Origin: Candidatus Nealsonbacteria bacterium | GTDB lineage: Bacteria; Patescibacteriota; Minisyncoccia; Minisyncoccales; GWA2-38-27 | Assembly (NCBI GenBank): GCA_043819385.1 | Contig: JBDREW010000015.1 | Coordinates: 1 to 28,093 of the forward strand | Direction: 5' to 3' | Length of the DNA: 28,093 nucleotides | Shown here: positions 32 through 27,501 of the stretch, piece by piece | Position numbering within the stretch: position 1 is the stretch's first letter | Layout: every line of letters starts with the position of its first letter | Made by a program: the position numbers and the translations under genes | Notes under the pieces: model-generated | What the model was told of the DNA's origin: nothing | What the model saw: the letters and a program-made list of their open reading frames with translations, nothing else | Databases searched by the model: none

Positions 32-772
32 TTATCCCAAAAATAAATCTTTGGATTTATTTAATTCTGACTCATTCAGCTCTTTTTTAAACATAACCCA
101 ATTTTCAATAAAATCTCTAAATCCTTGTTTTCCTTCCATTATTTCTGTCATAAATTCTCTTTCTGTGACAGAAGGAAAGTTTTTATTTTCTAAATAATCA
201 GGATAACTTGACCACTTATATTCTTGTTCTAAGAATTTAATAACTCTTTCTGGATCTTTAATTCCTATTTCTTTCCACTTTGGTTCTATTATTGATATAG
301 GGTTAGTATGTATATATGTAAATGTTATTTTTAATTGATTATTATCTTCTATTAAAACCGATTTAAATTTATCCTGAAATACATGTCCCTTCCTCTCATA
401 TTTTTTATTAAAATAACTAGCATAACCAGTACCAACTTTACTCATAAATTTAGTTATTCCATTATCTTTCATCTGTTTCAATAACAAATGAATATGATTA
501 GGCATAAAACAAAAAGCTAAAATATCAACAAATTTATCTCTTTTATCAATAATTTTATCGGATTGTGGAGATATAGTTTGCAATAATTTTTCTCTTTTAC
601 GCTCTACCCTCCTTTCTCTAATTTCTATTAATTTATCATTATTAAACTCATAAATAGAAAAAATACCACGATAATAATCGTCTTTATTTTTAAAAAGTAA
701 ATTATCATCTACTATTCTTAAAACAACATGATAAATCTCTCCATTAATAAATTCTCTTTTGTTACGAGGCAT
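32..772 (-). CDS. HUH / Y1 tyrosine transposase, IS200-like, REP-associated (RAYT-like)
   Basis: 246-aa ORF. It has N-terminal YHVVLR, the HUH motif MPNHIHLLL and a C-terminal YIHTNP catalytic-Tyr motif typical of Transposase_17/RAYT proteins. A GC-rich REP-like palindrome lies just upstream at 802-845. Confidence 0.7.
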   Translation of the reverse strand: MPRNKREFINGEIYHVVLRIVDDNLLFKNKDDYYRGIFSIYEFNNDKLIEIRERRVERKREKLLQTISPQSDKIIDKRDKFVDILAFCFMPNHIHLLLKQMKDNGITKFMSKVGTGYASYFNKKYERKGHVFQDKFKSVLIEDNNQLKITFTYIHTNPISIIEPKWKEIGIKDPERVIKFLEQEYKWSSYPDYLENKNFPSVTEREFMTEIMEGKQGFRDFIENWVMFKKELNESELNKSKDLFLG

Positions 773-801
773 AAAAAATAAAATTTACCAAATGATATAG
801 C

Positions 802-845
802 TCCGGGGGTCTTGCCCCCGGAGCTCCGGGGGCAAGACCCCCGGA
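802..845. repeat. REP-like GC-rich perfect palindrome (44 bp), centre GGAGCTCC; two mutually complementary G5/C5 hairpins
   Basis: Base-by-base check gives perfect complementarity 802-845 (ctccgggggtcttgcccccggag|ctccgggggcaagacccccgga). It is GC-rich in an AT-rich context. A related copy lies at 6901-6948. Confidence 0.8.
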
Positions 846-874
846 AATTCCTTATATAAATTTATGTAAATTAT

Positions 875-1978
875 TTATCTGATTACTACTCCGCTGTAAT
901 TATAAATGGCCCAGTTTTGGTAAAAATCTGAAGTTGACCAATAAAGACGGCCAGATAATGGGTCATTTATAATTATTTTAGAAGGATTTTCTTTTGGACC
1001 AATAAATCCAATTATTAACCTCACATGAGTTTCTTTGAATGCCTTTATATATTCTCCATCAGGAGTAGACCAAGAGCAATTAGTTAATCTTCCAGTTGGC
1101 ATTACCCCCCAAAATACTACTGGATTCCCATTAGTAATTTCATCTGTTAAGTTTTGAATAGTCCAATTAGAAAATGCTTCTGCTTCTCTCCAATTTTGAG
1201 CGGTTTTTGCTACTGGGTCCCAAAATACTCCAAAACCAGTTGCACACATTTTCCCATTTATATCTCCAACATATTTCTGATGAGCATTACCCCAAATATC
1301 TCCTTTATGAGGCGTTGAATCATAACCAATTTTTTCCATAATTTCATCTTCTGAAACGTAAACTCCTTTTCCAGACAAAGCCATTTTTAATGAAGCTGCC
1401 TCACAAGACAAAAAATAATCCTGGTAATCTATATTTATATCAAGCATTGTTATTTCTGGCTCTATGATATTTAAAGATGTATTATTTTGTTTTTTTTCAT
1501 CTATATTTATATCTTCATTTTCAAATCCATTATCTTCAAATTCTTGTTCATCATTATTTTCTTGAAAAAATTCTGAATCAATTTGTTTAGTTTTAAAATT
1601 AAATTCAAAAGAATTTGTTTTTTTTAATCCAAACCCCATTATATTCTCTAATTTAATTTGATATTGAGTATCTTGTTTAAAATTAACAACTGGAACAAAA
1701 ATAAGTGTTTTATAAAAATGATTTTCAATTATTGAATCCTCAAATCTCCATTCGCCATGTACTTCTGGATAAATTGACATTTTAATTTCCTGTCTTTTTA
1801 TTGGCTTATCAAATTTTATACGAATAGTAGAATCTAATGATACATTTTGAGATTTATCCACAGGAAAAATCTCTACGACTTTTGGAAGCGATACAATAAC
1901 AAAAATAGAATCAAAAACCACTACAAAAACAGTAGCAATTAGAAATGAAATAACAAAAAAAATTAGTTTTTTCAACAT
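875..1978 (-). CDS. membrane-anchored protein with bacterial Ig-like domain and C-terminal C39-like (YvpB-type) cysteine peptidase domain
   Basis: 367 aa with an N-terminal TM helix. The DKSQNVSLDSTIRIKFDKPI segment resembles SbsA/Big_5 Ig-like domains. The C-terminal ~180 aa (SCEAASLKMAL...DSTPHKGDIWGN...HVRLIIGF...NDPLSG) parallels Bacillus YvpB/Peptidase_C39_2 from memory. Confidence 0.6.
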   Translation of the reverse strand: MLKKLIFFVISFLIATVFVVVFDSIFVIVSLPKVVEIFPVDKSQNVSLDSTIRIKFDKPIKRQEIKMSIYPEVHGEWRFEDSIIENHFYKTLIFVPVVNFKQDTQYQIKLENIMGFGLKKTNSFEFNFKTKQIDSEFFQENNDEQEFEDNGFENEDINIDEKKQNNTSLNIIEPEITMLDINIDYQDYFLSCEAASLKMALSGKGVYVSEDEIMEKIGYDSTPHKGDIWGNAHQKYVGDINGKMCATGFGVFWDPVAKTAQNWREAEAFSNWTIQNLTDEITNGNPVVFWGVMPTGRLTNCSWSTPDGEYIKAFKETHVRLIIGFIGPKENPSKIIINDPLSGRLYWSTSDFYQNWAIYNYSGVVIR

Positions 1979-2099
1979 CTTTTTACCCGGTTAAATAATT
2001 TTGTTAAAACAAAATTAGAAATTGATTTTAATCAATTTCTATTTAACTAAATTTAATTTTACCATAAAATTACTACATTAAAAATTAAGAATTGTTAAA

Positions 2100-2280
2100 A
2101 CTGAAAAAGAGAAAGGGAAAGCTAAAAAAATACTAGACCTCTTTAGAGAGATGAAAGAAGCTGGTAGAAGTTAGACCTCTTAATTATTAAAGAAAAAGGG
2201 AGAAAGATAGTAGGGGTCTGACCTCTTAAGAGGGGTGAGGAGAAAGCTAGTAGGGGTCTGACCTTTGTTCCAATTTCCAA
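2100..2280 (+). repeat. degenerate tandem array (~4 units of ~40 bp) related to the dispersed AGCTGG..CGACCTCT repeat family
   Basis: Recurring gaaag(a)agctgg...tagacctctt and agtaggggtctgacct units within a 688-bp non-coding stretch. Confidence 0.5.
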
Positions 2281-2290
2281 GTTATAAGCT
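2266..2290 (-). repeat. degenerate copy of heptamer module (gttccaatttccaagttataag, reverse complement of CTTATAA-CTTGGAA-like)
   Basis: Matches the end of the (GTTCCAA)16 array plus GTTATGAG at 12040-12060. Confidence 0.4.
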
Positions 2291-2371
2291 TTAATATTTT
2301 ATCCCCTTTATATTATTATTTTATTTATGGTAAAATAAATATATTAAAAAATGTATTTAATATATATTTTC

Positions 2372-2424
2372 ATCGCTCGCTCGAAAATATGAAAGTAAAC
2401 TTCCGCATTCCTCTCGCTCGCTTA
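2372..2424. repeat. GCTCGCTCG-flanked element, same family as 4187-4237 but inverted orientation and decayed
   Basis: gctcgctcgaaaatatgaaagtaaacttccgcattcctctcgctcgct aligns with the reverse complement of the 4187-4237 element. Confidence 0.5.
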
Positions 2425-2666
2425 AAAATGAAAAGTGATAAATATTTGAATTTGTTTTTATTAAATTGCACTTATTTCAACATTTAACAATTTTAATTTC
2501 TGTTTTTAGATTTTTAATTTAAGAATATATAATTTTACATTAGCGAATCAAGGTTCTAACGAACGAAATGAATTAGGTTCTTAAAATTTTAATTTTTAAT
2601 ATGTCATTTTGAATTTTGCTATCGTTCACGAGGAACTTGTTCCTATTTAATTTTTAATTTTATTAT

Positions 2667-3083
2667 ATGGATTATTCAAAAGAACAACTTGATGAACTTT
2701 ATGAAAATCTTCCAGAAAATCTTCAAGAAGCTGTTTTCTCTGAGAAAAATGGAACTATTATTTATAATTCATGTATAAAAAACAAAATCGAAAAAGATGA
2801 AGAAATAAAACAGGTTTCTAAATATGTTGGATATGTTTTATTGGGACTTCTATCTCCAAATGATTTCCAAAAAAGTTTAGAAGAAAAAGTAGGAATAAAA
2901 AAAGAAAAAGCAATCCAAATTTATTCAGAAATAAATAGATCCATTTTTTTCTCAGTTAAAAACAGTTTAGAAGCTCTTTATGAAATAAAACTAAAAGATA
3001 CTCCTATAAAGATAACAAAAGATTCTCCTATTCTAAAAAATAATCTAAAATCAAAAGACACTTACAGAGAACCAATAGAATAA
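2667..3083 (+). CDS. hypothetical protein (first gene of prgI-virB4 block)
   Basis: 138-aa ORF with an ATG start. It is acidic and Lys-rich with no recognisable motif. Confidence 0.5.
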   Translation: MDYSKEQLDELYENLPENLQEAVFSEKNGTIIYNSCIKNKIEKDEEIKQVSKYVGYVLLGLLSPNDFQKSLEEKVGIKKEKAIQIYSEINRSIFFSVKNSLEALYEIKLKDTPIKITKDSPILKNNLKSKDTYREPIE

Positions 3084-3098
3084 TTTTTTATCAATTTT

Positions 3099-3524
3099 AT
3101 GCAATTTACAGTACCAAAATTTATTGAAAACAAACCAAAAATAATAGGTCCGCTTACTTTTAAACAATTTGTTTTTGTTGGAACAGCGGGTGGCATTTGC
3201 CTTTTTCTTTATTTTATCATTCCCATCTCTCTTTTTATAATCATAACCATATTTTTATTAGGCGGAGCTTTTGCTTTAGCTTTTATTAAAATTGGAAAGG
3301 ACCCTTTACCTGTTGTTATAAGAAATCTTCTTGTTTACAATTTTAATCCAAAAATTTATCTTTGGAAAAAAGAAATAGGCACTCCAAAAACAATAATATT
3401 AAAAAAGAAAGAAAAAATACCTGCTTTTATAAAAAATCAAGAAGACAAAAAAACTGAATTAAAAGTAACAAGAAATAGCAAATTAGACAGATTACTAACT
3501 AAAATTGCTACAAAAAACAAATGA
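3099..3524 (+). CDS. PrgI/VirB3-like small two-TM T4SS protein
   Basis: 141 aa. The N-terminus MQFTVPKFIENKPKIIGPLTFKQFVFVG is followed by two hydrophobic helices. It sits immediately upstream of VirB4 and is translationally coupled to it (ATGA overlap), as for Tn916 orf17/PrgI. Confidence 0.5.
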   Translation: MQFTVPKFIENKPKIIGPLTFKQFVFVGTAGGICLFLYFIIPISLFIIITIFLLGGAFALAFIKIGKDPLPVVIRNLLVYNFNPKIYLWKKEIGTPKTIILKKKEKIPAFIKNQEDKKTELKVTRNSKLDRLLTKIATKNK

Positions 3525-4171
3525 AAGAATCATCAACTCAAGATTTTTTAGAATTTGAACAAATAAAAAACGGGATTATCATTTTAAAAAATAAAGCATT
3601 AAGATCAGTTTTAATGACTTCTTCTTTGAATTTTGCTTTAAAATCTGAAGAAGAGCAACAATCTATTTTATATCAATTTCAAAACTTTTTGAATTCTTTA
3701 GATTTTTCAACTCAAATCCTTGTTCAATCAAGAAAATTAAATATAACTGGCTATTTAGATAAATTAAGAGAAATTGAAAAAAAAGAAAAAAGCGAATTAC
3801 TTAAAATACAACTTGATGAATATAGAAAATTTATAGAAAAAATATTATCCCAAGGGACTATTATGCAAAAAAGTTTCTATGTAATTGTCCCTTTTTCAAT
3901 TATGGAAACAAAGGAAACATCAACTATTAAAAAAGGACTCTTACCTAAAATCATTCCAGAATTAACTGAAGAAGAGTTTAATAGAGCAAAAACCCAACTT
4001 TTACAAAGGGTAGAATTTGTATCTTTAGGATTAAGAGGATTTGGACTTCAATCTTCTCCTTTAAATACATTAGAAATTATTGAACTTTTCTGGGGACTTC
4101 ATCATCCGTCAGAAGCTGAAAAAGGATATTACCCAGAATTTCCACTTGATTTAGATTTAGAAGAAGAATAA
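3521..4171 (+). CDS. VirB4/TrbE-family ATPase, N-terminal domain (5' half of a split gene)
   Basis: 216 aa. The segment FEQIKNGIIILKNKALRSVLMTSSLNFALKSEEEQQSILYQFQNFLNSLDFSTQILVQS matches the conserved N-terminal region of Gram-positive VirB4 homologues (Tn916 Orf16/TcpF/PrgJ type) from memory. The ORF ends 184 bp before the ATPase ORF, which is in a different frame. Confidence 0.6.
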   Translation: MKESSTQDFLEFEQIKNGIIILKNKALRSVLMTSSLNFALKSEEEQQSILYQFQNFLNSLDFSTQILVQSRKLNITGYLDKLREIEKKEKSELLKIQLDEYRKFIEKILSQGTIMQKSFYVIVPFSIMETKETSTIKKGLLPKIIPELTEEEFNRAKTQLLQRVEFVSLGLRGFGLQSSPLNTLEIIELFWGLHHPSEAEKGYYPEFPLDLDLEEE

Positions 4172-4186
4172 ATTTATTTATTTTCA

Positions 4187-4338
4187 AGCGAGCGAGAGAA
4201 ATGTGAAAGCTTGCTTTCACATTTCCGAGCGAGTGCTGAAAATGTATGTATTAAATACATTTTTTAATACCCCCACCCCTTGGGGTGGGATAAATATAAG
4301 TCTTTTGGGTGGGGTATAATACCCCAACCAAAAGTTCA
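4187..4338. repeat. block of four hairpins/palindromes filling the gap between the VirB4 halves
   Basis: The four elements are 4187-4237 agcgagcgagagaaatgtgaaagc/ttgc/tttcacatttccgagcgagtgct, 4240-4266 aaaatgtat-gtattaa-atacattttt, 4268-4291 ccccacccc-ttgg-ggtggg, and 4296-4330 cttttgggtggggtat-aat-accccaaccaaaag. Confidence 0.7.
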
Positions 4339-4355
4339 ATATATTCATATTTATT

Positions 4356-6161
4356 ATGAAATTACCATTTACAAAACAATTTAAAAGGAGAGAGAAAATC
4401 ATAGAACTTCCTGTACCATCTCAATCTGTTCAAATTTCTGATGTTATTGCTCCTTCTTTTATTGAAGTTAAGCAAAATCATATCAAAATAGGAGAACGTC
4501 TTGCTAAAACCTATTTTATTTTTTCATATCCAAGATATTTAACTACTGGATGGCTTTCTCCAATAATAAATCTAAATGTCCCAATGGATATTTCTTTTTA
4601 TCTTCATCCTGTTGAATCAGGAAAAATTTTAAAACAATTAAGAAGAAGAGTTACTGAAGTCCAAGCAGAAATTGGCGAAAAAGAAGAAAAAGGACAAATT
4701 AGAGACCCACAATTAGAAACAGCTTATGGCGATTTAGAAGAATTAAGAGACAAGCTCCAAACTGCCCAAGAAAGGATGTTTTATTTTGGATTATACCTAA
4801 CTATTTATGCTGATTCCGAAAAAGAACTAAGAGACACTGAAACAAACTTAAGATCAATTTTAGAATCTAGATTAATTTATATTAAGCCCGCTCTTTATCA
4901 ACAAAAAGAAGGATTTGTTTCTACTTCTCCATATAATTTAGACGTTCTAATGATTTCTAATTTGATGAACACTGGGCCTTTGTCAAGTATGTTTCCATTT
5001 ATTTCTTTTGATTTGAGTTCAAATGAAGGAATTCTTTATGGAATTAATAGGCACAACAATTCACTTGTTTTATTCGACCGATTTACTTTAGCAAATGCAA
5101 ATTCAGTAATTTTTGGAATATCAGGAGGAGGAAAATCCTATGCTATAAAATTAGAAATTTTAAGATATTTAATGCTTGGAACTGATGTTATAATTTTAGA
5201 CCCTGAAAATGAATATAAGTTTCTTTCAGATGCTGTTGGCGGGTCTTTTTTTAATATATCTTTGGCCTCTCCACATCATCTTAATCCATTTGATTTACCA
5301 CAACCAAGAGAAGATGAACTCGTAGAAGATGTTTTAAGAACAAACATTATGAATTTAGTTGGATTGATAAGAATAATGCTTGGTGGATTGACACCAGAAG
5401 AAGACGCAATTATTGATAGCGGATTAACTGAGACCTATGCTGCAAAAGATATTACTGCTAAATCAGATCCAAAACTATGGGGAAAAGAAGATGGATTAGA
5501 ATTTCCTATTATGAGTGATTTTGAAGAAGTTCTTTCAACAATGGAAGGAGCAGAATCATTAGTAAGACGACTTCAAAGATTTACCAAAGGAGTCTATTCA
5601 AGTTTTTTTAATCAACGAACTAATATAGATGTAGATAAAAGAATGGTTGTTTTTGGTATTCGTAATATGGAAGACGAACTTCGTCCAATGGCTTTATTTA
5701 TGATTTTAAGATTTATTTGGAAAACCGTTAGTGCCAAAATGAAAAAACGACTTTTAGTTATTGATGAGGCATGGTGGTTAATGCAAAATGAAGATGGTGC
5801 TTCTTTCTTATTTGGAACAGTTAAAAGGGCTAGAAAATACTGGCTTGGAGTTACTACTATTACCCAAGATGTAGCTGATTTTATGAAATCTGAATATGGT
5901 CAACCAATTATTACTAATTCATCACTTGCTTTATTGATGAAACAAAATCCAGCAACAATAGAAGTTGTTAAAAAAACTTTCAACCTAACTGAAGAAGAAA
6001 AGCTTTTACTTTTAGAAACACCCGTTGGAGAAGGTATATTTTTTGCCGGAACAAAACATGTTTTAGTTAAAATATTAGCTTCATATGCCGAAGATCAAAT
6101 AATTACAACTTCCCCTGAAGAAGTTGAGAAAATAAGACAAGCAAAAAAAGAATTAGAATAA
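4356..6161 (+). CDS. virB4: VirB4/TrbE/PrgJ-family T4SS ATPase (ATPase part)
   Basis: 601 aa with Walker A GISGGGKS, Walker B LLVIDEAW, and the IGERLAKTYFIFSYPRYLTTGWL and ILDPENEY motifs characteristic of VirB4 ATPases. Confidence 0.85.
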   Translation: MKLPFTKQFKRREKIIELPVPSQSVQISDVIAPSFIEVKQNHIKIGERLAKTYFIFSYPRYLTTGWLSPIINLNVPMDISFYLHPVESGKILKQLRRRVTEVQAEIGEKEEKGQIRDPQLETAYGDLEELRDKLQTAQERMFYFGLYLTIYADSEKELRDTETNLRSILESRLIYIKPALYQQKEGFVSTSPYNLDVLMISNLMNTGPLSSMFPFISFDLSSNEGILYGINRHNNSLVLFDRFTLANANSVIFGISGGGKSYAIKLEILRYLMLGTDVIILDPENEYKFLSDAVGGSFFNISLASPHHLNPFDLPQPREDELVEDVLRTNIMNLVGLIRIMLGGLTPEEDAIIDSGLTETYAAKDITAKSDPKLWGKEDGLEFPIMSDFEEVLSTMEGAESLVRRLQRFTKGVYSSFFNQRTNIDVDKRMVVFGIRNMEDELRPMALFMILRFIWKTVSAKMKKRLLVIDEAWWLMQNEDGASFLFGTVKRARKYWLGVTTITQDVADFMKSEYGQPIITNSSLALLMKQNPATIEVVKKTFNLTEEEKLLLLETPVGEGIFFAGTKHVLVKILASYAEDQIITTSPEEVEKIRQAKKELE

Positions 6162-6235
6162 TATAGTAAAATTAAAAATCAAAATGCAAAATGCAAAATA
6201 ACAAATTAAAAATCAAAATGGGAGAGGAGGGAAAA

Positions 6236-6300
6236 AGCTGGAAAGAGCCCCGACCTCTCTTAGAGAGGGAGAGGAAGTTTTTTAGAGGTCGGGGTTCGGG
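6236..6300 (+). repeat. dispersed structured ~65-bp repeat (copy 1): AGCTGGAAAGAGCCCCGACCTCTCTTAGAGAGGGAGAGGAAGTTTTTTAGAGGTCGGGGTTCGGG; internally deleted partial copy at 6341-6366
   Basis: Inverted repeat CCCCGACCTCT / AGAGGTCGGGG enclosing a CTCTCTTAGAGAG palindrome. Near-identical copies at 27665-27727 (+) and 21238-21310 (-). Confidence 0.8.
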
Positions 6301-6424
6301 AAAGGGAAATTAAATATTAAAACGGAAAGAGAGAAAGGAAAGCTGGGAAGAGGTCGGGGCTCGGGAGATGGAGAAGGAAAGATTAAAAATTAAAATCAAA
6401 ATGAAAGGAGAAAAAAATAAATAA

Positions 6425-6880
6425 ATGGAAAAAGATAACTCAAAACAAGAAAATAATTTAGAAGAAGAAAAACCAAAGCCAATTCTCAGTCAAGGGGAAA
6501 TGAAATTTCCAAAAGTTGAAATTGGTATGGGAGCTATTTTTAGCCCAGAAGCATTAGTGATGTTTTCTCTTGCTGGAATACTTGATATAATTGGATTTCT
6601 TCTTCTTTGTTTTGCATTAGATGATCTCTGGATTCTTGATACAACCGGACTAATACTTATTGGTTCTTGGATGTTTTTTAGAACAGGAAGCATTCCTACA
6701 TCTAAAAGATTAAGACAAAATAAACAAAATCCTACCTCAGAAATAAAAAAGAAAATGGGAAGAAAAATTTTAAAAAGATTAGGATTAGCTTTTTTTATTG
6801 AAGCAATACCATGGATTGGAGGTCTTGTTCCATCTTGGACTATAGCTGTTTATTTTGAACTTAAAAATAATCCACTATAA
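6425..6880 (+). CDS. hypothetical small membrane protein
   Basis: 151 aa with 2-3 hydrophobic helices. It lies between virB4 and the pilin-fusion genes. Confidence 0.5.
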   Translation: MEKDNSKQENNLEEEKPKPILSQGEMKFPKVEIGMGAIFSPEALVMFSLAGILDIIGFLLLCFALDDLWILDTTGLILIGSWMFFRTGSIPTSKRLRQNKQNPTSEIKKKMGRKILKRLGLAFFIEAIPWIGGLVPSWTIAVYFELKNNPL

Positions 6881-6900: not shown

Positions 6901-6948
6901 TTTACGGGGGTCTTACCCCCGGAGCTCCGGGGGTAAGACCCCCGTAAA
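6901..6948. repeat. REP-like 48-bp perfect palindrome (tttacgggggtcttacccccggag|ctccgggggtaagacccccgtaaa), centre GGAGCTCC
   Basis: Its reverse complement equals itself. It belongs to the same family as 802-845. Confidence 0.8.
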
Positions 6949-6964
6949 TTCTTTCTATAAATTA

Positions 6965-9022
6965 ATGGATAATGAAAAAAAAACAAAAGATATAAAAAGA
7001 GTTTTTTTTGGATTTTTAATCCTCTTTTTTTTATTTTTTACAAATATTGTTTTTGCTTTAGAGGTTGATTATCCATCATTTCCTGGAATACCAGATATCA
7101 ACAATTCAACATCAATGGAAGATATCACTATTTATAGGTTTAGATTTATTATTATAATTTCTGGATTTATAGCTTTATTATCTTTAGTAATAGCTGGAGC
7201 TCGTTATCTTACCTCAACCGGAAAACCAGATAAAATGGCGTCTGCCAAAGAACAAATCTCAAATGCTTTTTTTGGTCTTTTACTTTTATTGTCATCATTC
7301 CTTTTACTTCAAGCCATAAGCCCTAAATTTGTTGAATTAGGAATAACAAAACCAGAAAAAATTGAAACACCAGAAATTATAGAAACATCCGACTTCCCAA
7401 TTCAAGAGTTTAGGTCATCAATATATACTGAAATCCCTTTTGGAAAAATAATTGAACAATATATATTAGAAAATAAAAATACAATTGAAGAAGATAAAAA
7501 AGACAAAAGAAAATCAAGAATGGAAAGAATTTTAGATATTGGAGAAAACTCATTACAACTTGGCGAAAAATTAAAAAAACAAAGTGAAGAATTAAAAGAA
7601 CTTGCTCAAAAATGCGATTGTACTCAATTAAAAACTTGCTGTGAAAATTCTAATCCAGGGCCTGCCTGCACAAGTAATCTTTGTGTTTCAAAACCAGGAT
7701 GTACTGGAGACCCATGTAAAAATTCAAGAGATAATATCCAAAAAAAAGAAAAAGAAAATTTAAAAGCAATGTATGAGGGAACAGAAGTTAAACAAGATGA
7801 TATTTCTGGAAATTCTTCTCAAGTCACAACTAGCTTAAGAACTGAACAAGAAAGGGCTTCCCAAGAAATTCGACTTATAAAATATGAGATAGATAAAATA
7901 GAAAGAGCGGAAACCTTTATGATAGAATGTCCATTATGGTCAATAACAAATTTATCTGATTATTTAGATACAAAAAACTTTTATTTAGAAAAAAAATGGA
8001 GATTTGAGCCAGTTAATTTTTGGTCGGATATAAGGGTAATTGATGATTGGGCAACTGTTTATTGTGCAGTAAGTGGTAATACTTGGGAATCAAATTATCA
8101 AGAATCATCTGGCAAGATAGAAGATCTTTCAAAATCAGTGAAACGATCATATCAAGGATTTTCTAGCGACAAAGAACCAGTCACTTGTACAACTGAAATT
8201 TCAATTGGTGAGCTTATGGATAGAGCCAAAAGAACTGGATATAAATTAGTAGAAAGATTAGAAAAAATTATTGATTTGAATGAACAATTAACAAAAGCTG
8301 TTAATGACCTTCATACATTAGTAAGTCAATGCTCATCTCTCGGACCATCCGCTGATCCTCCACGAGCAGGTTGTTTTTCTCAATGCCATAAAACAATTCT
8401 TAACGCTTGTATTAAACAATGTATAGGTTTAGCTCCAGGATGGCAAGGACCTTGCCCAGCTCAAAAAATTGAAGAAAAAATTAAAGAAATTAAAGATATT
8501 GTAGAAGGAGTTCCAAACCAACCAGCTGAAAATGAAGAAAAAAAGGAAAAAGAAGGGATAAAAGATGTACTTGAAGCCAAGAAAAAAACAAAAAAAGAAG
8601 CTATTGAAGATAACGCAACAAGAGAACAAATAGGTATAAAACCAATTGTCAATGAAGTTGTTCCAAAAATAATTGAAGATTTGGCTGGAATGGTCAGAAA
8701 TCCTATTAAAAAATGTGTTTCTGGATTTACAGGGATAAGTCAAGTATTAAGCTGTAGCAATAGTATTAATGGAATAGGGCCAGAAGATAAATTAATTAAA
8801 GAATGTTGTTATAACGAAAAATGGTTTCAAGAATGTCTTGGTCAATGTTATTTAGAGGGTCCTAAAAATGAATCATCTGATAATAATTCAACAGGAAAAA
8901 AAGAGGAAAGCGAATATAAAAAATGTTTAAAAAGCTGTCAAGATAAAAAAGCCAAAGAAACTAAAATAGACGCAATATCTGATTGTCTTCATTTAATTAA
9001 TTTCTATTGTTGCTCACCATAA
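6965..9022 (+). CDS. VirB2/TrbC-like pilin-domain protein with long Cys-rich/coiled-coil C-terminal extension (paralog 1, 685 aa)
   Basis: Signal peptide, then LEVDYPSFPG, then a hydrophobic helix ...ISGFIALLSLVIAGARYLTSTGKPDKMASAKEQISNAFFGLLLLL... that aligns with the short pilin at 27067-27501. The C-terminal ~530 aa carry multiple CxxC/CC clusters and Lys/Glu-rich coiled coil. Confidence 0.7.
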   Translation: MDNEKKTKDIKRVFFGFLILFFLFFTNIVFALEVDYPSFPGIPDINNSTSMEDITIYRFRFIIIISGFIALLSLVIAGARYLTSTGKPDKMASAKEQISNAFFGLLLLLSSFLLLQAISPKFVELGITKPEKIETPEIIETSDFPIQEFRSSIYTEIPFGKIIEQYILENKNTIEEDKKDKRKSRMERILDIGENSLQLGEKLKKQSEELKELAQKCDCTQLKTCCENSNPGPACTSNLCVSKPGCTGDPCKNSRDNIQKKEKENLKAMYEGTEVKQDDISGNSSQVTTSLRTEQERASQEIRLIKYEIDKIERAETFMIECPLWSITNLSDYLDTKNFYLEKKWRFEPVNFWSDIRVIDDWATVYCAVSGNTWESNYQESSGKIEDLSKSVKRSYQGFSSDKEPVTCTTEISIGELMDRAKRTGYKLVERLEKIIDLNEQLTKAVNDLHTLVSQCSSLGPSADPPRAGCFSQCHKTILNACIKQCIGLAPGWQGPCPAQKIEEKIKEIKDIVEGVPNQPAENEEKKEKEGIKDVLEAKKKTKKEAIEDNATREQIGIKPIVNEVVPKIIEDLAGMVRNPIKKCVSGFTGISQVLSCSNSINGIGPEDKLIKECCYNEKWFQECLGQCYLEGPKNESSDNNSTGKKEESEYKKCLKSCQDKKAKETKIDAISDCLHLINFYCCSP

Positions 9023-9027
9023 AAAAA

Positions 9028-10626
9028 ATGTTTAAAAAAATCATTATTCTAATATCTGCTTTTTTAATTATTGGTTTTATTTTTGCTCCTATTTCTTATG
9101 CTCTTGAAACTAATTATCCATCAGTCCCCGGAGCTTCACAACCATCAGACCAAACATCTTTACCAGATTTTGTAAAATATATTTTTGTACTTTTAATCGC
9201 TGGATCTGGAATTATTGCTATATTTAGTTTAACAATAGCTGGATTCCGTTATTTAAATTCAGGAGGAAATCCAGAAAAAATAAAGCAAGCAAGAGGTCAA
9301 GTATTATCAGCTTTTTGGGGAATTATGATTTTATTAGGTTCTTGGGTTATTCTAAATATTATCAATCCAAAATTAACTTCTTTAGAATTAGAAGACCCAA
9401 TTCCTGTTCCTGGTGTAGAAATACCTGCTCCTCCAATTTATTCTATTCCTACTTCAGATCTTTTATTAAGAGTAAAATTATTAGTTGAGGCAACAAAAAA
9501 AACTCCTGATTATATAAAAGAAACAGCTAAAAAAATAAAAGAATTAACTGATAAGTGTGATTGTGGAAATACTCAATCCATTTGTGCTTGTGAAAAAGGA
9601 GGACAATCATCATTAGATAAAAAACCATGGGATTATAGTTTAGATAATTACGATACAGATATCTTTTTATTATCTTATGAAAAAAAACCAATAATTATTC
9701 CTAAAACATTTAATGATAGCATAGAACCAATCGGAGCAGGTGGAGAAACTCCATTTGGTGGTGGTGGTATAGAACCAATTGGAGCAGGTGGAGAAACTCC
9801 ATTTGGTGGTGGTATAGAACCAATTGGAGCAGGTGGAGAAACTCCATTTGGCGGTGGTGGTATAGAACCAATTGGAGCAGGTGGAGAAACTCCAGGAGAG
9901 CCTGGAGGAGAGCCTGGAGGAGAATCTGGAGGAGAACCCGAAGGAGAGCCCGAAGAAGGAGGACCAGATCAAAATTTAATTTGTAAACCAAAAACTTGCT
10001 ATATTGGACAATCCTCTAACCCTTGCCCTGACAAAGAAGATATTAAAAAATATGAAAAAGCTCTTATTGACCAAAAAGATATGATTTTCTATTATAAGAA
10101 TAGGGTATATGAAGAAAGAAATGATTTAACCACTGATATAGAACAATTTATAGATAAAGAAATATCTTGGTACGAAGAACAAATACAGGCTGAGGAAAAA
10201 TTAGAGGACTGGGGAGGATTAAAACAAAGAAAAATAGATTTTCTTCAAGAAAGAAAAAGCTGGTTAGAACAAGAAAAAAAATACAAACAAGAATTAATCC
10301 AAGAGCTTGAACAACTTGCTCAAATTATTGAAAAAATAGGAGATCCATCTATAAAAATTCCTCAACTATCAAATCAATGTTTAATAAATGTAAAAACAAA
10401 ATGTCAGGCAAGATGTAAACAAAGCAATGACAATGGATGTATTGATAAAGTAAAAGGGTGCGAACCAGACTCTTGTACGGGAGGAAATCCATGTTCAACT
10501 GGTGAGATACAATCTGAAATAAGTAAAATTGAACAAATTTCTCAAGAAATCAAAAGTAAATGTGATCAAATAATTTCTACTATAAACAATATAGAAAAAG
10601 AAAAAACTCCAACTAAAACGCTTTAA
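9028..10626 (+). CDS. VirB2/TrbC-like pilin-domain protein with repeat-containing Cys-rich extension (paralog 2)
   Basis: Same N-terminal architecture (ALETNYPSVPG, LPDFVKYIFVLLIAGSGIIAIFSLTIAGFRYLNSGGNPEKIKQARGQVLSAFWGIMILLGSWVILNIINP). The track start at 9007 is TTG; ATG at 9028 is more likely. Contains tandem IEPIGAGGETPFGGGG and GEPGG repeats and Cys clusters. Confidence 0.7.
   Translation: MFKKIIILISAFLIIGFIFAPISYALETNYPSVPGASQPSDQTSLPDFVKYIFVLLIAGSGIIAIFSLTIAGFRYLNSGGNPEKIKQARGQVLSAFWGIMILLGSWVILNIINPKLTSLELEDPIPVPGVEIPAPPIYSIPTSDLLLRVKLLVEATKKTPDYIKETAKKIKELTDKCDCGNTQSICACEKGGQSSLDKKPWDYSLDNYDTDIFLLSYEKKPIIIPKTFNDSIEPIGAGGETPFGGGGIEPIGAGGETPFGGGIEPIGAGGETPFGGGGIEPIGAGGETPGEPGGEPGGESGGEPEGEPEEGGPDQNLICKPKTCYIGQSSNPCPDKEDIKKYEKALIDQKDMIFYYKNRVYEERNDLTTDIEQFIDKEISWYEEQIQAEEKLEDWGGLKQRKIDFLQERKSWLEQEKKYKQELIQELEQLAQIIEKIGDPSIKIPQLSNQCLINVKTKCQARCKQSNDNGCIDKVKGCEPDSCTGGNPCSTGEIQSEISKIEQISQEIKSKCDQIISTINNIEKEKTPTKTL
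9715..9960 (+). repeat. intragenic tandem repeats: 48/45-nt unit x4 (IEPIGAGGETPFGG(G)G) followed by 12-15-nt GGAGAGCCTGGA-type units
   Basis: Direct near-identical nucleotide repeats visible at 9721-9900. They are GC-richer than the flanks. Confidence 0.85.
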
Positions 10627-10632
10627 TTTTTT

Positions 10633-11862
10633 ATGAAAAAAAACATTATTTTATTATTAATATTTCCTTTAATTCTGATTTTATTTTTTCCGTTAATTGT
10701 AAATGGACAAGGAACGGAACCACGTGCCTTAGAGCTTGAATATCCTTCTTTTCCACCCGAAGCTTCTGCGCCGACAAGCACTACATCTTTACCAGATTTT
10801 GTAAAATATATTTTTGTTTTTGCCATAATTATTTCTGGCTTTATCGCATTATTAGTTATTGTTTATGCTGGTTTTGAATACACGGCCTCAATAGGATCTC
10901 CTAACAAAATACAAAGTGCAAAAGATAAAATAAATGGTGCTATTATAGGTTTATTAATATTAGCTGTTTCTTGGTTAATTCTTGATACTATCAATCCTCA
11001 ATTAGTTATTTTCCGATTGCCAAGCGAATTGCCATCTGCTATCCCTGATATAAGTCCTGGAGTTTATTTATGTTCTCAAAGAGTAGATATTTTAGGATTT
11101 TGGCAAAAAAGACAACAAGCTGAACGCGAAGAAGGAACAACCCAAAAACAAACATTTCAAGAATTAACAGGAATACTAAAAACAATAGAACAATATTGTG
11201 CTCCAACTAACCCAGTTCAAACATCAGGAGATATTAGCTCAGATATTGAAGATAAAATTCAATATGTTTATCTTGTACCATCTTTCAGGGAAGCCCAATA
11301 TGGAGCAATCCTTTATGAAGAAAGAGGATTTCAAGGTAAAAGTAGCGTATTTTACGGAACATCAACAGGATCAGGAGGAGTTTCTACATTAGATAAACCA
11401 ACTGAATGGCCTGTACGGAACATTCAAGCATCTTCAGCACGAGTTTTTATACTTAACTTTAATCCAGCTCCATCATGGGAAGCAAGATTATTTGAATTAG
11501 TCCACTTTAATAGAGACGACATAAAAGGAAAAAAAACTCCTGAAGCATGTAAACCAGGAGAACAGGGTTCATCAACGGCAACAGGAAATTGTCAAATACC
11601 TAAAAATAAAGATAATAAAAATGAAGTTGGATCAGTAAATATTGAAGGTAGTATGTTTGTTATATTTTTAAAAGAAGGGGGTGATTGGACAAGCTCATCA
11701 GATAATTATATCCAAGCAAATCCAGGCAATACTGATTTAAACAATACAGTAATGGGCACATGGAAAAGAGAAGAATGTGTTGAAAAAAGAGAACCAGAAC
11801 TACGAGATAGATATTATCCATGTGCTGAAAGGGGAGTTGTTGTGGGTGCAGATTTTTATTAA
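10633..11862 (+). CDS. VirB2/TrbC-like pilin-domain protein with globular C-terminal extension (paralog 3, 409 aa)
   Basis: LELEYPSFPPE, LPDFVKYIFVFAIIISGFIALLVIVYAGFEYTASIGSPNKIQSAKDKINGAIIGLLILAVSWLILDTINPQL, then ~280 aa with scattered Cys. Confidence 0.7.
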   Translation: MKKNIILLLIFPLILILFFPLIVNGQGTEPRALELEYPSFPPEASAPTSTTSLPDFVKYIFVFAIIISGFIALLVIVYAGFEYTASIGSPNKIQSAKDKINGAIIGLLILAVSWLILDTINPQLVIFRLPSELPSAIPDISPGVYLCSQRVDILGFWQKRQQAEREEGTTQKQTFQELTGILKTIEQYCAPTNPVQTSGDISSDIEDKIQYVYLVPSFREAQYGAILYEERGFQGKSSVFYGTSTGSGGVSTLDKPTEWPVRNIQASSARVFILNFNPAPSWEARLFELVHFNRDDIKGKKTPEACKPGEQGSSTATGNCQIPKNKDNKNEVGSVNIEGSMFVIFLKEGGDWTSSSDNYIQANPGNTDLNNTVMGTWKREECVEKREPELRDRYYPCAERGVVVGADFY

Positions 11863-11864
11863 AA

Positions 11865-11885
11865 CTCATAACTCATAACTCATAA
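11865..11885 (+). repeat. (CTCATAA)3 heptamer repeat beginning at the stop codon
   Basis: taa-aa-ctcataa-ctcataa-ctcataa-ctt. Confidence 0.7.
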
Positions 11886-11887
11886 CT

Positions 11888-22353: not shown

Positions 22354-23463
22354 ATGTCGTATACAAACTCAAACCAAAAAGAGATTGAATCCGATAAACA
22401 GATACTGAAACAAAAAAAGAGCTCTAAAGGAGCTAAAAAGTTTTTTGGTATATCTTTAGTTATTATTATTTTAGGAGTTATAATTTTTGGAGCAAAACCT
22501 CTTTTAAATTCCCTTGTTAATAGGGATTTTTCTTTTTTAACAGCTCAATCAGCTGATAAGATTTTTTCTCAAGAATTATTTATTGAACCAACAAAGAATT
22601 TTCTTAAAGAATCATCTGAAATGAATTTTGTTCAAGAAAATAGTATAATAGCTATTTCTGCCCCTTGGTCAGTTGCTTCTCGGGCTTTGGGGTCAATAGC
22701 AGAAGAAACAGAAATAACAGCTGAGGGATTAGATACAGGGCTTACAGAGTATATTGTAGAAGAGGGAGATACTATATCATCTATTGCTGATAAATTTAAT
22801 ATTTCTTTAGAAACAATTTTGTGGGCAAATGATTTAAGTAGCAAATCAACAATAAAGCCAGGGCAAGAACTTATGATTTTACCTATTTCAGGAGCTGTTC
22901 ATTTGGTAAAAGATGGAGACACTATTGGGACGATTGCTAAAAAGTATAAAGGAGAAATAGATGATATTGTTAGTTTTAATAATCTTACAAGTGAAGCAGA
23001 TATTTATGTTGGAGATATGTTAGTTATCCCTGGTGGAAAAATGCCAGCAATTCCAGTAAAAGTTGTTTCTACTCCTTTGGCTGAAACATATTTTATGTTC
23101 CCATGTGAAGGAAAAATATCACAAGGATCTCATGGAGCTTTTGGAAATGCTGTTGATATCGCAAATAGCTGTGGAAAGCCAGTAGTAGCTTCTGCTGGTG
23201 GAACAGTCCAAAGAACAGGGCCTGCTCCTATTGCTGGAAACATTGTAACTATTATGCATCCTAATGGAGTTGTAAGCTCTTATGGTCATCTTTCAACAAT
23301 TACTGTTGTTCCTGGTCAAGTAGTTGGAACAGGAGATATTATTGCTTATATTGGAAATTCTGGATATACAGTTGGACAAACTGGTTGTCATTTACATTTT
23401 GAAGTTCGTGGTGCTTCAAACTTTTTGGCTCAGTATAAAATTGGAAGCATTATTAAATGGTAA
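22354..23463 (+). CDS. LysM(x2)-M23 family metallo-endopeptidase
   Basis: An N-terminal TM helix, two LysM repeats (YIVEEGDTISSIADKFNIS..., HLVKDGDTIGTIAKKYKGE...) and an M23 core HGAFGNAVDI...GHLS...GNSGYTVGQTGCHLHFEVR. Confidence 0.85.
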   Translation: MSYTNSNQKEIESDKQILKQKKSSKGAKKFFGISLVIIILGVIIFGAKPLLNSLVNRDFSFLTAQSADKIFSQELFIEPTKNFLKESSEMNFVQENSIIAISAPWSVASRALGSIAEETEITAEGLDTGLTEYIVEEGDTISSIADKFNISLETILWANDLSSKSTIKPGQELMILPISGAVHLVKDGDTIGTIAKKYKGEIDDIVSFNNLTSEADIYVGDMLVIPGGKMPAIPVKVVSTPLAETYFMFPCEGKISQGSHGAFGNAVDIANSCGKPVVASAGGTVQRTGPAPIAGNIVTIMHPNGVVSSYGHLSTITVVPGQVVGTGDIIAYIGNSGYTVGQTGCHLHFEVRGASNFLAQYKIGSIIKW

Positions 23464-26884: not shown

Positions 26885-26934
26885 TATGTGCGGGGATCGG
26901 ACCCCCGCAAGTTATTTTATGATTAATTTAGGTT

Positions 26935-27066: not shown

Positions 27067-27501
27067 ATGATTAAAAAGATCCTTATAATCTCTTTTTTGG
27101 GATTGTTTGTTTTCTCTCCTTTTATAGTAAATGCTCAAACAAGGTCAGGCTGTCCAACGCAAGGGTTAGTTCCTTGTGGAGGTTCATCGTGTCCATGTAA
27201 ACTTTGTGATTTTTTTAAAATGATTGAAAGAATTGTTGATTTTATTCTTTTTGGAATTGTGCCAGCTTTAGCTGCTTTAATGATAGCAATTGGAGGATTT
27301 ATGTATATTTTTGCTTATTTAGGAGTAGCCGGAGGAGGTCCAGAAATGCTTTCAACTGCCAAAAATGTGTTTAAAGCAGTTATTTTAGGTCTTTTAATAG
27401 TTTATGGTGCTTGGCTAATTATTAATACATTCTTTATGGTAATAGGTGTGGCAGATTGGACTGGTTTAAGGCAAGGATGGTGGACAATTAACTGTAATTA
27501 G
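27067..27501 (+). CDS. VirB2/TrbC-like T4SS pilin, short Cys-motif type common in CPR genomes
   Basis: 144 aa with a signal peptide and CPTQGLVPCGGSSCPCKLCDF. Hydrophobic helix-loop-helix ALMIAIGGFMYIFAYLGVAGGGPEMLSTAKNVFKAVILGLLIVYGAWLIINT. Terminal Cys. Confidence 0.75.
   Translation: MIKKILIISFLGLFVFSPFIVNAQTRSGCPTQGLVPCGGSSCPCKLCDFFKMIERIVDFILFGIVPALAALMIAIGGFMYIFAYLGVAGGGPEMLSTAKNVFKAVILGLLIVYGAWLIINTFFMVIGVADWTGLRQGWWTINCN

Follow-up and report, generated by a model that had tools for sequence, protein, structure and literature searches.

The window analysed here is a contig of 28,093 nucleotides (JBDREW010000015.1, GenBank assembly GCA_043819385.1) from a metagenome-assembled genome of Candidatus Nealsonbacteria. 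Within a block of type IV secretion system (T4SS) genes it contains three consecutive open reading frames (ORF1 to ORF3) whose products join a short pilin module to long C-terminal domains. This trio is a fixed and conserved module of three parts in which variability is localised; it is no assortment of diversified cassettes. Patescibacterial T4SS and their pilin arrays are already known; a fixed trio of long pilin fusions is undescribed in the literature searched. The three proteins are tentatively interpreted as low-copy, minor-pilin-like subunits at the distal end or stalk of a Patescibacterial T4SS resembling the mating-pair formation (MPF) type FATA, a reading to which we give slightly less than an even chance. 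ORF1 and ORF2 would then be the scaffold and ORF3 a variable host-binding head, rather than all three being interchangeable adhesin cassettes.

The three genes are intact on the forward strand and are separated by gaps of 5 nt (ORF1/ORF2) and 6 nt (ORF2/ORF3). Their main features, and the short pilin encoded further along the window, are as follows:

6965-9022, forward strand: ORF1 (ABH956_00660), 685 amino acids (aa), with a signal peptide (residues 1-31), a pilin hairpin (about 51-118), a flexible Pro/Glu-rich linker (about 119-156) and a predicted disulfide-rich helical ectodomain (about 157-685)
7058-7333, forward strand: mature N-terminus of ORF1 (LEVDYPSFPG) and two-helix VirB2-like module, carrying the conserved motifs
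9028-10626, forward strand: ORF2 (ABH956_00665), 532 aa from the ATG at 9028, with a signal peptide, a pilin hairpin and an ectodomain paralogous to that of ORF1 but shorter
9610-9975, forward strand: lineage-specific insert of about 122 aa in ORF2, after residue 194, made of IEPIGAGGETPFGGGG and GEPGG tandem repeats at the hypervariable Cys-knot site
10633-11862, forward strand: ORF3, 409 aa, with a signal peptide, a hairpin (residues 55-119), a linker, a short helical region and a beta domain of the beta/gamma-crystallin type
11197-11859, forward strand: beta-rich ectodomain of ORF3, of beta/gamma-crystallin fold, which evolves faster than any other part of the trio
27067-27501, forward strand: free-standing short pilin, 144 aa, matching Pfam PF18895 (E 1.5e-5, 25.4 bits) and, below threshold, PF04956 (E 2e-4, 21.8 bits)

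An earlier note, made from the letters of the DNA, had described three tandem giant proteins at these positions; the coordinates and lengths were confirmed exactly, and "giant" is an overstatement for proteins of 409-685 aa. Each protein has three hydrophobic segments, namely a signal peptide and two helices (residues 10-37, 54-83 and 97-123 in ORF1; 1-27, 45-74 and 90-114 in ORF2; 1-28, 52-88 and 98-127 in ORF3), and the AlphaFold2 (AF2) models place the hairpin helices at residues 51-83 and 88-118 of ORF1 and 55-85 and 90-119 of ORF3. Over the first 160 residues or so, the identity to ORF1 is 39% for both ORF2 and ORF3 and 21% for the short pilin, which bears out both the shared N-terminal module and its alignment with the short pilin as first noted. 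All three families keep two motifs: A|LExxYPxxPG, which follows the signal peptide (probably cleaved at the conserved A|LE site), and the loop Y..S.G.P...AK. This loop and the general layout are common to the trio and the short TrbC-like pilin, which is without the LExxYP motif.

As had been proposed, the three proteins share as their anchor a VirB2-like T4SS pilin module, of family PF18895 (T4SS_pilin). The gathering score of this family (26.6 bits) is passed by ORF1 (31.5) and ORF3 (32.8), while the scores of ORF2 (25.7) and of the short ORF (25.4) in this hidden Markov model (HMM) search are slightly under it. Among orthologues, PF18895 is matched at E<=0.01 by 13/14 members of the ORF1 family, 7/7 of ORF2 and 11/11 of ORF3; taken together, 31 of the 32 family members scanned match it, and no other family matches the pilin-module region in them. 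The gene of ORF3 is already annotated as "pilin" in the database. VirB2-like pilins are usually hairpins of about 70-150 aa, and in this respect the trio departs from them by 280-560 residues beyond the hairpin; since these extensions are kept in the orthologues, they are no annotation artefact.

It is well established that VirB2 pilins lie in the membrane with both termini outside the cell. In the trio all the cysteines are found after the second helix (28 in ORF1, 15 in ORF2 and 6 in ORF3), including the clusters quoted in the earlier note, which are present in the translations. In the 15 orthologue sets the conserved Cys columns number 26 in ORF1 (in at least 80% of orthologues), 14 in ORF2 and 3 in ORF3, and all of them are in the extensions. 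By this topology and cysteine placement the C-terminal domains are predicted to be extracellular and disulfide-bonded. This, together with the position of the genes inside a T4SS operon, sustains the cell-surface role suggested at first. CPR (candidate phyla radiation) bacteria have been reported to carry oxidoreductases of the MdbA/VKOR type.

The extensions of ORF1 and ORF2 gave nothing significant in Pfam, NCBIfam or PDB sequence searches. When the families were trimmed of the pilin module and compared with hhalign, these two extensions proved to be homologous (98.6% probability, E 8e-16), whereas the ORF3 extension matches neither of them; the earlier statement that the extensions are unrelated to each other holds therefore only for ORF3. 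The alignment spans a helix-CDCxxT..C knot, the long central helices and a Cys cluster ending in PCPxxEI. The same comparison on untrimmed alignments was uninformative, because the signal came mostly from the pilin module and from a single ORF1-like sequence included among those of ORF2. The AF2 model of ORF1, with a predicted local distance difference test score (pLDDT) of 65, consists of the hairpin followed by long helices and small sheets.

The joining of separate genes by missed stops was also considered for these proteins and rejected, since full-length orthologues exist for all three. They cover 96-100% of ORF1 and ORF3, and those of ORF2 (359-604 aa) can be aligned before and after the repeat insert. 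For ORF1, 16 other homologues were found, mostly full-length, with identities of 29-50% across 88-99% of the query. The tandem array noted in ORF2 was recovered by Tandem Repeats Finder as a 48-bp unit repeated 3.7 times at 9721-9894 (93% matches) and a 12-bp unit repeated 4.8 times at 9894-9950. The insert is missing from the sequence homologues and from the orthologues in loci L001 and L003, and in the set of 15 genomes only L006 has an insert there, of 29 aa; the repeats themselves were seen in none of the homologues and orthologues compared. The repeat DNA in the ORF2 of the window is young.

ORF3 carries beta/gamma-crystallin domains. Its ectodomain has the double Greek-key beta fold of the beta/gamma-crystallin superfamily, the AF2 model of the protein having a pLDDT of 69, and the classic Greek-key signature YGAILYEERGFQG is present in the sequence. 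In comparison with the microbial beta/gamma-crystallins (Protein S, spherulin 3a and flavollin 3HZB), the sequence matches of ORF3 are below threshold: Pfam PF00030 (Crystall) is reached at E 0.14 (12.7 bits, cutoff 25), and flavollin (PDB 3hzb) at E 1.2 over the motif YGxILYE..F.G. Eight homologues of ORF3 were found at 31-52% identity over 94-100% of the query, and its orthologues in the 15 genomes measure 386-424 aa. To our knowledge no fusion of crystallin domains to a T4SS pilin module has been described.

The loci compared comprise the window, three loci from exact-protein look-ups and 13 loci from GTDB genomes, the latter returned by a scan with a single peptide pattern that under-samples the family. 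The order ORF1, ORF2, ORF3 is found in 15/15 distinct genomes in which all three genes could be scored (the window and 14 others). The usual site of the trio is after a conserved 138-aa ORF (up138), PrgI, TrsD, VirB4 and, in some cases, a small transmembrane (TM) protein, and before jag-yidC-rnpA and dnaA-dnaN; in three genomes the trio is instead beside VirB6. The spacing between ORF1 and ORF2 goes from -13 to +25 nt, and six loci show a 4-bp overlap of ORF2 with ORF3; this tight spacing suggests coupled expression or translation of partners in a complex. When the ORF1 family profile was used in an HMM search, the number of representatives retrieved was 46,657 at E<=1e-3, falling to 10,339 at E<=1e-10 and to 580 at E<=1e-30. 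Of the 150 best matches, which are about 600-1,900 aa long, almost every one aligns along most of the 658-position profile. ORF1-type proteins constitute, from these counts, a large and widespread family.

The description of the trio as a set of diversified modules is not upheld by the related genomes, in which there is one orthologue per gene in fixed order and ORF1 and ORF2 show signs of purifying selection. Across the 15 genomes the mean pairwise identity of pilin module and extension is 57% and 41% for ORF1, 50% and 42% for ORF2, and 53% and 27% for ORF3. Rates of substitution come from the single closest pair of loci (L010/L011; dS 0.5-1.5, about 0.5-1.0 for most genes, partly saturated) and are indicative only. 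In this pair the extensions of ORF1 and ORF2 have a dN of 0.10-0.15 and a dN/dS of 0.12-0.17, near the values of PrgI, RnpA and up138, and the dN/dS of ORF1/ORF2 is 0.12-0.21; this would indicate purifying selection comparable to that on other T4SS genes. On the other hand, the ORF3 extension has a dN of 0.49 (45% identity) against 0.07 (87%) for its own pilin module, an indication that the crystallin domains diverge several-fold faster than their anchor.

Variation is limited to the ORF3 ectodomain and one insertion site in ORF1/ORF2. Large insertions gather at this single site, the Cys knot: in L016 there are 805 additional residues after ORF1 residue ~238, and the homologues P0007 and P0015 carry arrays of about 500 aa made of repeats of ~20 residues. 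These insertions are at the same Cys-knot site as the Gly-rich repeats of ORF2 in the window, and the site looks like a shared hypervariable apex. The ORF1-family members concerned (L016 at 50-4366, P0007, P0015 and others) are 1,100-1,900 aa long, their insertions of 500-800 residues having the repeat consensus NPxDLxxI...L..I.G, roughly. With regard to the domain shuffling for which the earlier note proposed a check, the trio is fixed in the 15 genomes; domain exchange on the pilin anchor does occur over longer evolutionary distances, as in the more distant L017, where a protein of 810 aa (7935-10367) joins the pilin module to a Lamin-tail domain. Besides, pilin-module proteins related to the short pilin of the window are encoded in L017 (11590-12996, 468 aa) and L014 (4482-5576, 364 aa), and a gene beside the trio of L015 (11785-12579, reverse strand) encodes an ORF3-like ectodomain of 264 aa with no detectable pilin module.

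The trio closes a T4SS gene block that begins with the 138-aa ORF. The other genes of this block, and two further genes of the window that may belong to the same system, are:

2667-3083, forward strand: conserved 138-aa ORF (up138), first of the block; 13 related loci have a homologue (phmmer 1e-19 to 2e-36) directly upstream of PrgI
3099-3524, forward strand: PrgI/VirB3-like membrane protein (Pfam PF12666 PrgI, E 4.4e-7, 30.8 bits, cutoff 27)
3521-4171, forward strand: TrsD/TraC-like protein resembling the N-terminal part of VirB4, in its own gene; NCBIfam VirB4 models match it at N-terminal positions only
4356-6161, forward strand: VirB4-family T4SS ATPase (NCBIfam NF045971, CD1110-family VirB4-like, E 2e-106, 357 bits, cutoff 325; Pfam P-loop_TraG, E 1e-27)
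6425-6880, forward strand: small membrane protein of 151 aa, encoded between virB4 and the trio, with a hydrophobic segment at residues 35-73 and same-position homologues in L004, L007, L009 and L017
18623-20977, reverse strand: VirB6/TrbL-like polytopic membrane protein, 784 aa (Pfam TrbL E 2e-4 and TrbL_4 E 4.5e-4, both below gathering)
22354-23463, forward strand: protein with LysM (Pfam, 1e-25) and Peptidase_M23 (9e-23) domains, with homologues next to the trio or VirB6 in L006, L008 and L017

No significant Pfam or NCBIfam match was found for the 138-aa ORF, nor any match to families of these databases for the 151-aa membrane protein. VirB4 is present as two genes, a TrsD/TraC-like N-terminal protein (PF26593, TraC-like, being recorded for its orthologues) and the ATPase, with a gap of 184 nt. 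As the split is present in all related loci, it is the normal state and no frameshift, and it agrees with the separate trsD gene adjoining virB4 that has been published as typical of Patescibacteria. In the related Nealsonbacteria locus L010 (3790-7587) the P-loop ATPase region of VirB4, there a protein of 1,265 aa, is interrupted by an intein that contains a LAGLIDADG homing endonuclease (Intein_splicing 2.6e-19, LAGLIDADG_3 3e-18). Homologues of the VirB6-like protein adjoin the trio in L006, L008 and L014, and the LysM-M23 peptidase is a candidate cell-wall hydrolase for the T4SS, by its domains a possible functional analogue of VirB1. Directly downstream of the trio, on the opposite strand, are jag, yidC and rnpA, followed by dnaA and dnaN, which places the T4SS block at the replication origin. 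Just upstream of the block (875-1978, reverse strand) there is a secreted-looking protein with Big_5 Ig-like and C39-like cysteine peptidase domains, which has a close homologue (4e-147) at the same position in L015 and may be an accessory of the T4SS.

Several noncoding elements were also observed in the window. Between the small membrane protein gene and ORF1 (6903-6946) lies a perfect GC-rich palindrome of 44 nt, TACGGGGGTCTTACCCCCGGAGCTCCGGGGGTAAGACCCCCGTA, with a 20-bp stem including 14 G-C pairs in a genome of ~30% GC. A near-identical copy with the same AAATTC(T/C)TT..TATAAATT flank is at 804-843, beside an ORF for an IS200-like Y1 transposase (32-772, reverse strand), and a weaker single hairpin is at 26891-26907, upstream of the short pilin; matches to the palindrome arm number 8 in the window against 0 expected by chance. 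The palindrome resembles a repetitive extragenic palindromic (REP) element, or a REPIN (a hairpin-forming pair of such elements), with a transposase like the REP-associated tyrosine transposases (RAYT), and the copy ahead of the trio may act as a terminator or RNA stabiliser. The spacer of 264 nt between virB4 and the small membrane protein gene (6161-6425) is strongly purine-rich, with runs such as GGAGAGG, GGGAAAG and GAAAGG and a small terminator-like hairpin at 6254-6274. An Rfam scan of the window, including this spacer, found only tRNA-Lys, and the 52 sites of a promoter scan do not stand out from the 47 expected of shuffled sequence. Directly after the ORF3 stop codon there is a perfect 7-bp tandem repeat, AACTCAT x3.6 (11863-11887).

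The T4SS of Patescibacteria has been described as being of MPF-FATA type, with a separate TrsD, a location near dnaA and usually no relaxase; divergent VirB2-like genes in tandem, 2-11 to an array, have been reported from 383 assemblies (Quinonero-Coronel et al. 2025). In Southlakia epibionticum, whose system is without relaxase, the pilin array in the T4SS cluster is essential for epibiotic growth. That array (SEML1_0014-0019) and the trio have in common PF18895, an MPF-FATA-like context (PrgI, TrsD, VirB4, VirB6), the proximity to dnaA and tandem paralogues of low mutual identity. However, the S. epibionticum pilin genes SEML1_0017-0019 and 0024 have 381-435 nt (about 127-145 aa), and the PF18895 match of SEML1_0015 ends near residue 180, whereas the members of the trio carry 280-560 further residues. 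Moreover, Patescibacterial pilin arrays vary in gene number, whereas the trio is a fixed orthologous module of three members. The literature on T4SS pilins, covered incompletely in the search, gave no discussion of protein length, C-terminal domains or a conserved three-gene module. Proteins with a T4SS pilin domain are among the most highly expressed secreted proteins without known function in archaea-parasitising Paceibacteria. The bacterium of the window does belong to the CPR, as the earlier note supposed, being a Candidatus Nealsonbacteria, a lineage reported as ectosymbionts of the methanogen Methanothrix, in a preprint with no mention of T4SS pilins.

Other systems resemble the trio in concept. 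The VirB5/TraC tip protein that accompanies the VirB2 pilin in Gram-negative T4SS offers a functional analogy only, as a low-copy and largely helical extracellular subunit that contacts the target at the distal end. The trio differs in the covalent fusion of its ectodomains to the pilin module, in having three distinct subunits and in its monoderm bearer; there is neither a Pfam VirB5 match nor a fold match to its three-helix bundle with globular appendage. The minor pilins and tip adhesins of type IV pili and type II secretion systems (PilVWX-PilY1, GspK) are also alike in concept, with enlarged pilin-fold subunits in fixed gene order that prime or cap a filament of a small major pilin. Their pilin fold and machinery are unrelated, with no homology to the trio: a type IV pilin has only one helix, at its N-terminus, and undergoes processing by a prepilin peptidase. 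The Mbov_0395-family pilin-like conjugal transfer protein (NF045849) of the Mycoplasma integrative and conjugative element, from a T4SS that is also monoderm, shows weak HMM similarity to the hairpin (E 1e-7 to 8e-4). The trio module scores 19-31 bits against this model, below its cutoff of 40, and NF045849 proteins have ~80 residues and no ectodomains.

According to the mechanism proposed for the trio, the hairpins would sit in the membrane like VirB2 after Sec export. The VirB4/VirB3/VirB6 machine would then extract them and build them into a low-copy complex at the tip or stalk of a T4SS filament or channel, an arrangement that would be analogous to VirB5 on VirB2 pili or to the minor pilins with PilY1 on type IV pili. 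Any shaft would be built by ordinary short pilins, the one at 27067-27501 being a candidate major or shaft subunit. ORF1 and ORF2 would provide a rigid scaffold exposing the hypervariable loop, which in the window would bear the Gly-rich repeats, and ORF3 could be a variable host-contact module, possibly with Ca2+-dependent binding, for episymbiotic attachment or exchange. In the F-pilus about 5 subunits are packed per rise of ~12-13 A, at a diameter of ~87 A; a domain of 30-60 kDa on every subunit is hard to pack in the lattice of F- or T-pili, which favours low-copy incorporation. A bolder form of this proposal, in our opinion rather unlikely, is that the three proteins are an unrecognised class of T4SS minor pilins. 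They would co-assemble into a heteromeric, disulfide-stapled tip or spike on a monoderm T4SS filament, with ORF1 and ORF2 as a stalk pair with a hypervariable apex and ORF3 as a fast-evolving crystallin receptor-binding head, and would be the first to touch the host, bacterial or archaeal, whose envelope they might also breach.

Several observations weigh against the interpretation of the trio as tip or stalk subunits. No pilus has been demonstrated for any Patescibacterial T4SS, reviews mentioning it as a possibility only, so that "pilin" is here the name of a family and not a tested function. The model PF04956 (TrbC/VirB2, gathering 27.9) does not match the three long proteins, and the module profile retrieved from the PDB generic TM proteins only and no solved VirB2/TraA pilin by sequence. 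The module is for this reason assigned to the T4SS_pilin family of CPR and monoderm bacteria and not to canonical TrbC/VirB2. The ORF1 ectodomain has no specific PDB fold match, which leaves a tip or VirB5-like role to analogy only, the AF2 models are of moderate confidence (pLDDT 65-69) and built on shallow alignments of 9-14 sequences, and the evolutionary rates depend on one partly saturated pair. The absence of a demonstrated pilus is also an argument for a scaffold of a membrane-resident channel or stalk, in which the hairpin would be a mere two-helix anchor, never extracted or polymerised, and the ectodomains would remain on the cell and cross the wall or S-layer in place of VirB8/PrgL- and VirB10-type parts that are not recognisable here. 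Family searches recognised no VirB8-like or VirB1-like gene in the operon, the trio is conserved and linked to virB4 as tightly as core parts, and large ectodomains are awkward in a helical pilus lattice. Nevertheless, the anchor is a PF18895 module with a conserved mature N-terminal motif and no generic TM pair. The homologous modules of Saccharibacteria are bare, pilin-sized and essential proteins, which argues for an assembly function proper to the module, and the fast evolution of the ORF3 ectodomain is more in keeping with a contact surface exposed to the outside than with the inner wall of a channel. We regard the channel scaffold as a serious alternative, although less probable than the placement of the trio at the tip or stalk.

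The display of adhesins or effectors on a common pilin anchor, as first envisaged, would in its strong form imply that each fusion polymerises as a major pilin, with its domains along the pilus and the paralogues as alternative specificities. The flexible linker of 20-35 residues before each ectodomain might give the domains room to spread away from the filament, F-pilin is known to accept and display short C-terminal extensions, and other fusions exist in more distant lineages, such as the one with a Lamin-tail domain. The genomes examined offer no such alternatives, however, as all three genes are present in each of them, orthologous and in fixed order. Selection on ORF1 and ORF2 is purifying and not diversifying, and ectodomains of 30-60 kDa, reaching about 1,300 aa in L016, are hard to fit in a close-packed VirB2 lattice, so that such decorated homopolymers seem improbable. 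It could also be argued that the pilin match is a compositional false positive, and that these are ordinary secreted or membrane-anchored Cys-rich surface proteins merely located beside T4SS genes, in view of the modest PF18895 scores (25.7-32.8 bits) and of the generic character of the PDB matches of the module. Against this are the independent matches of nearly all family members to PF18895 and to nothing else in that region, the loop motif and layout in common with the short pilin, and the linkage to virB4 conserved across 15 genomes, which make this explanation very improbable indeed.

If ectodomain pilins form the outer end of the T4SS, they would be concrete candidates for host contact and host range, the fast-evolving crystallin domain of ORF3 being the prime one, and the tip or spike complex, if it exists, would be a determinant of the specificity of episymbiosis in a large part of the Paceibacteria. 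It would also show a route by which a monoderm T4SS can elaborate an extracellular structure, and would provide a large and easily recognised gene module (hundreds of clusters at 50% identity) for comparative and structural work, in which the ectodomain of ORF1/ORF2 represents a fold without solved relative. This is of particular importance in that the Patescibacterial T4SS is the sole T4SS shown to be essential for the growth of its bearer.

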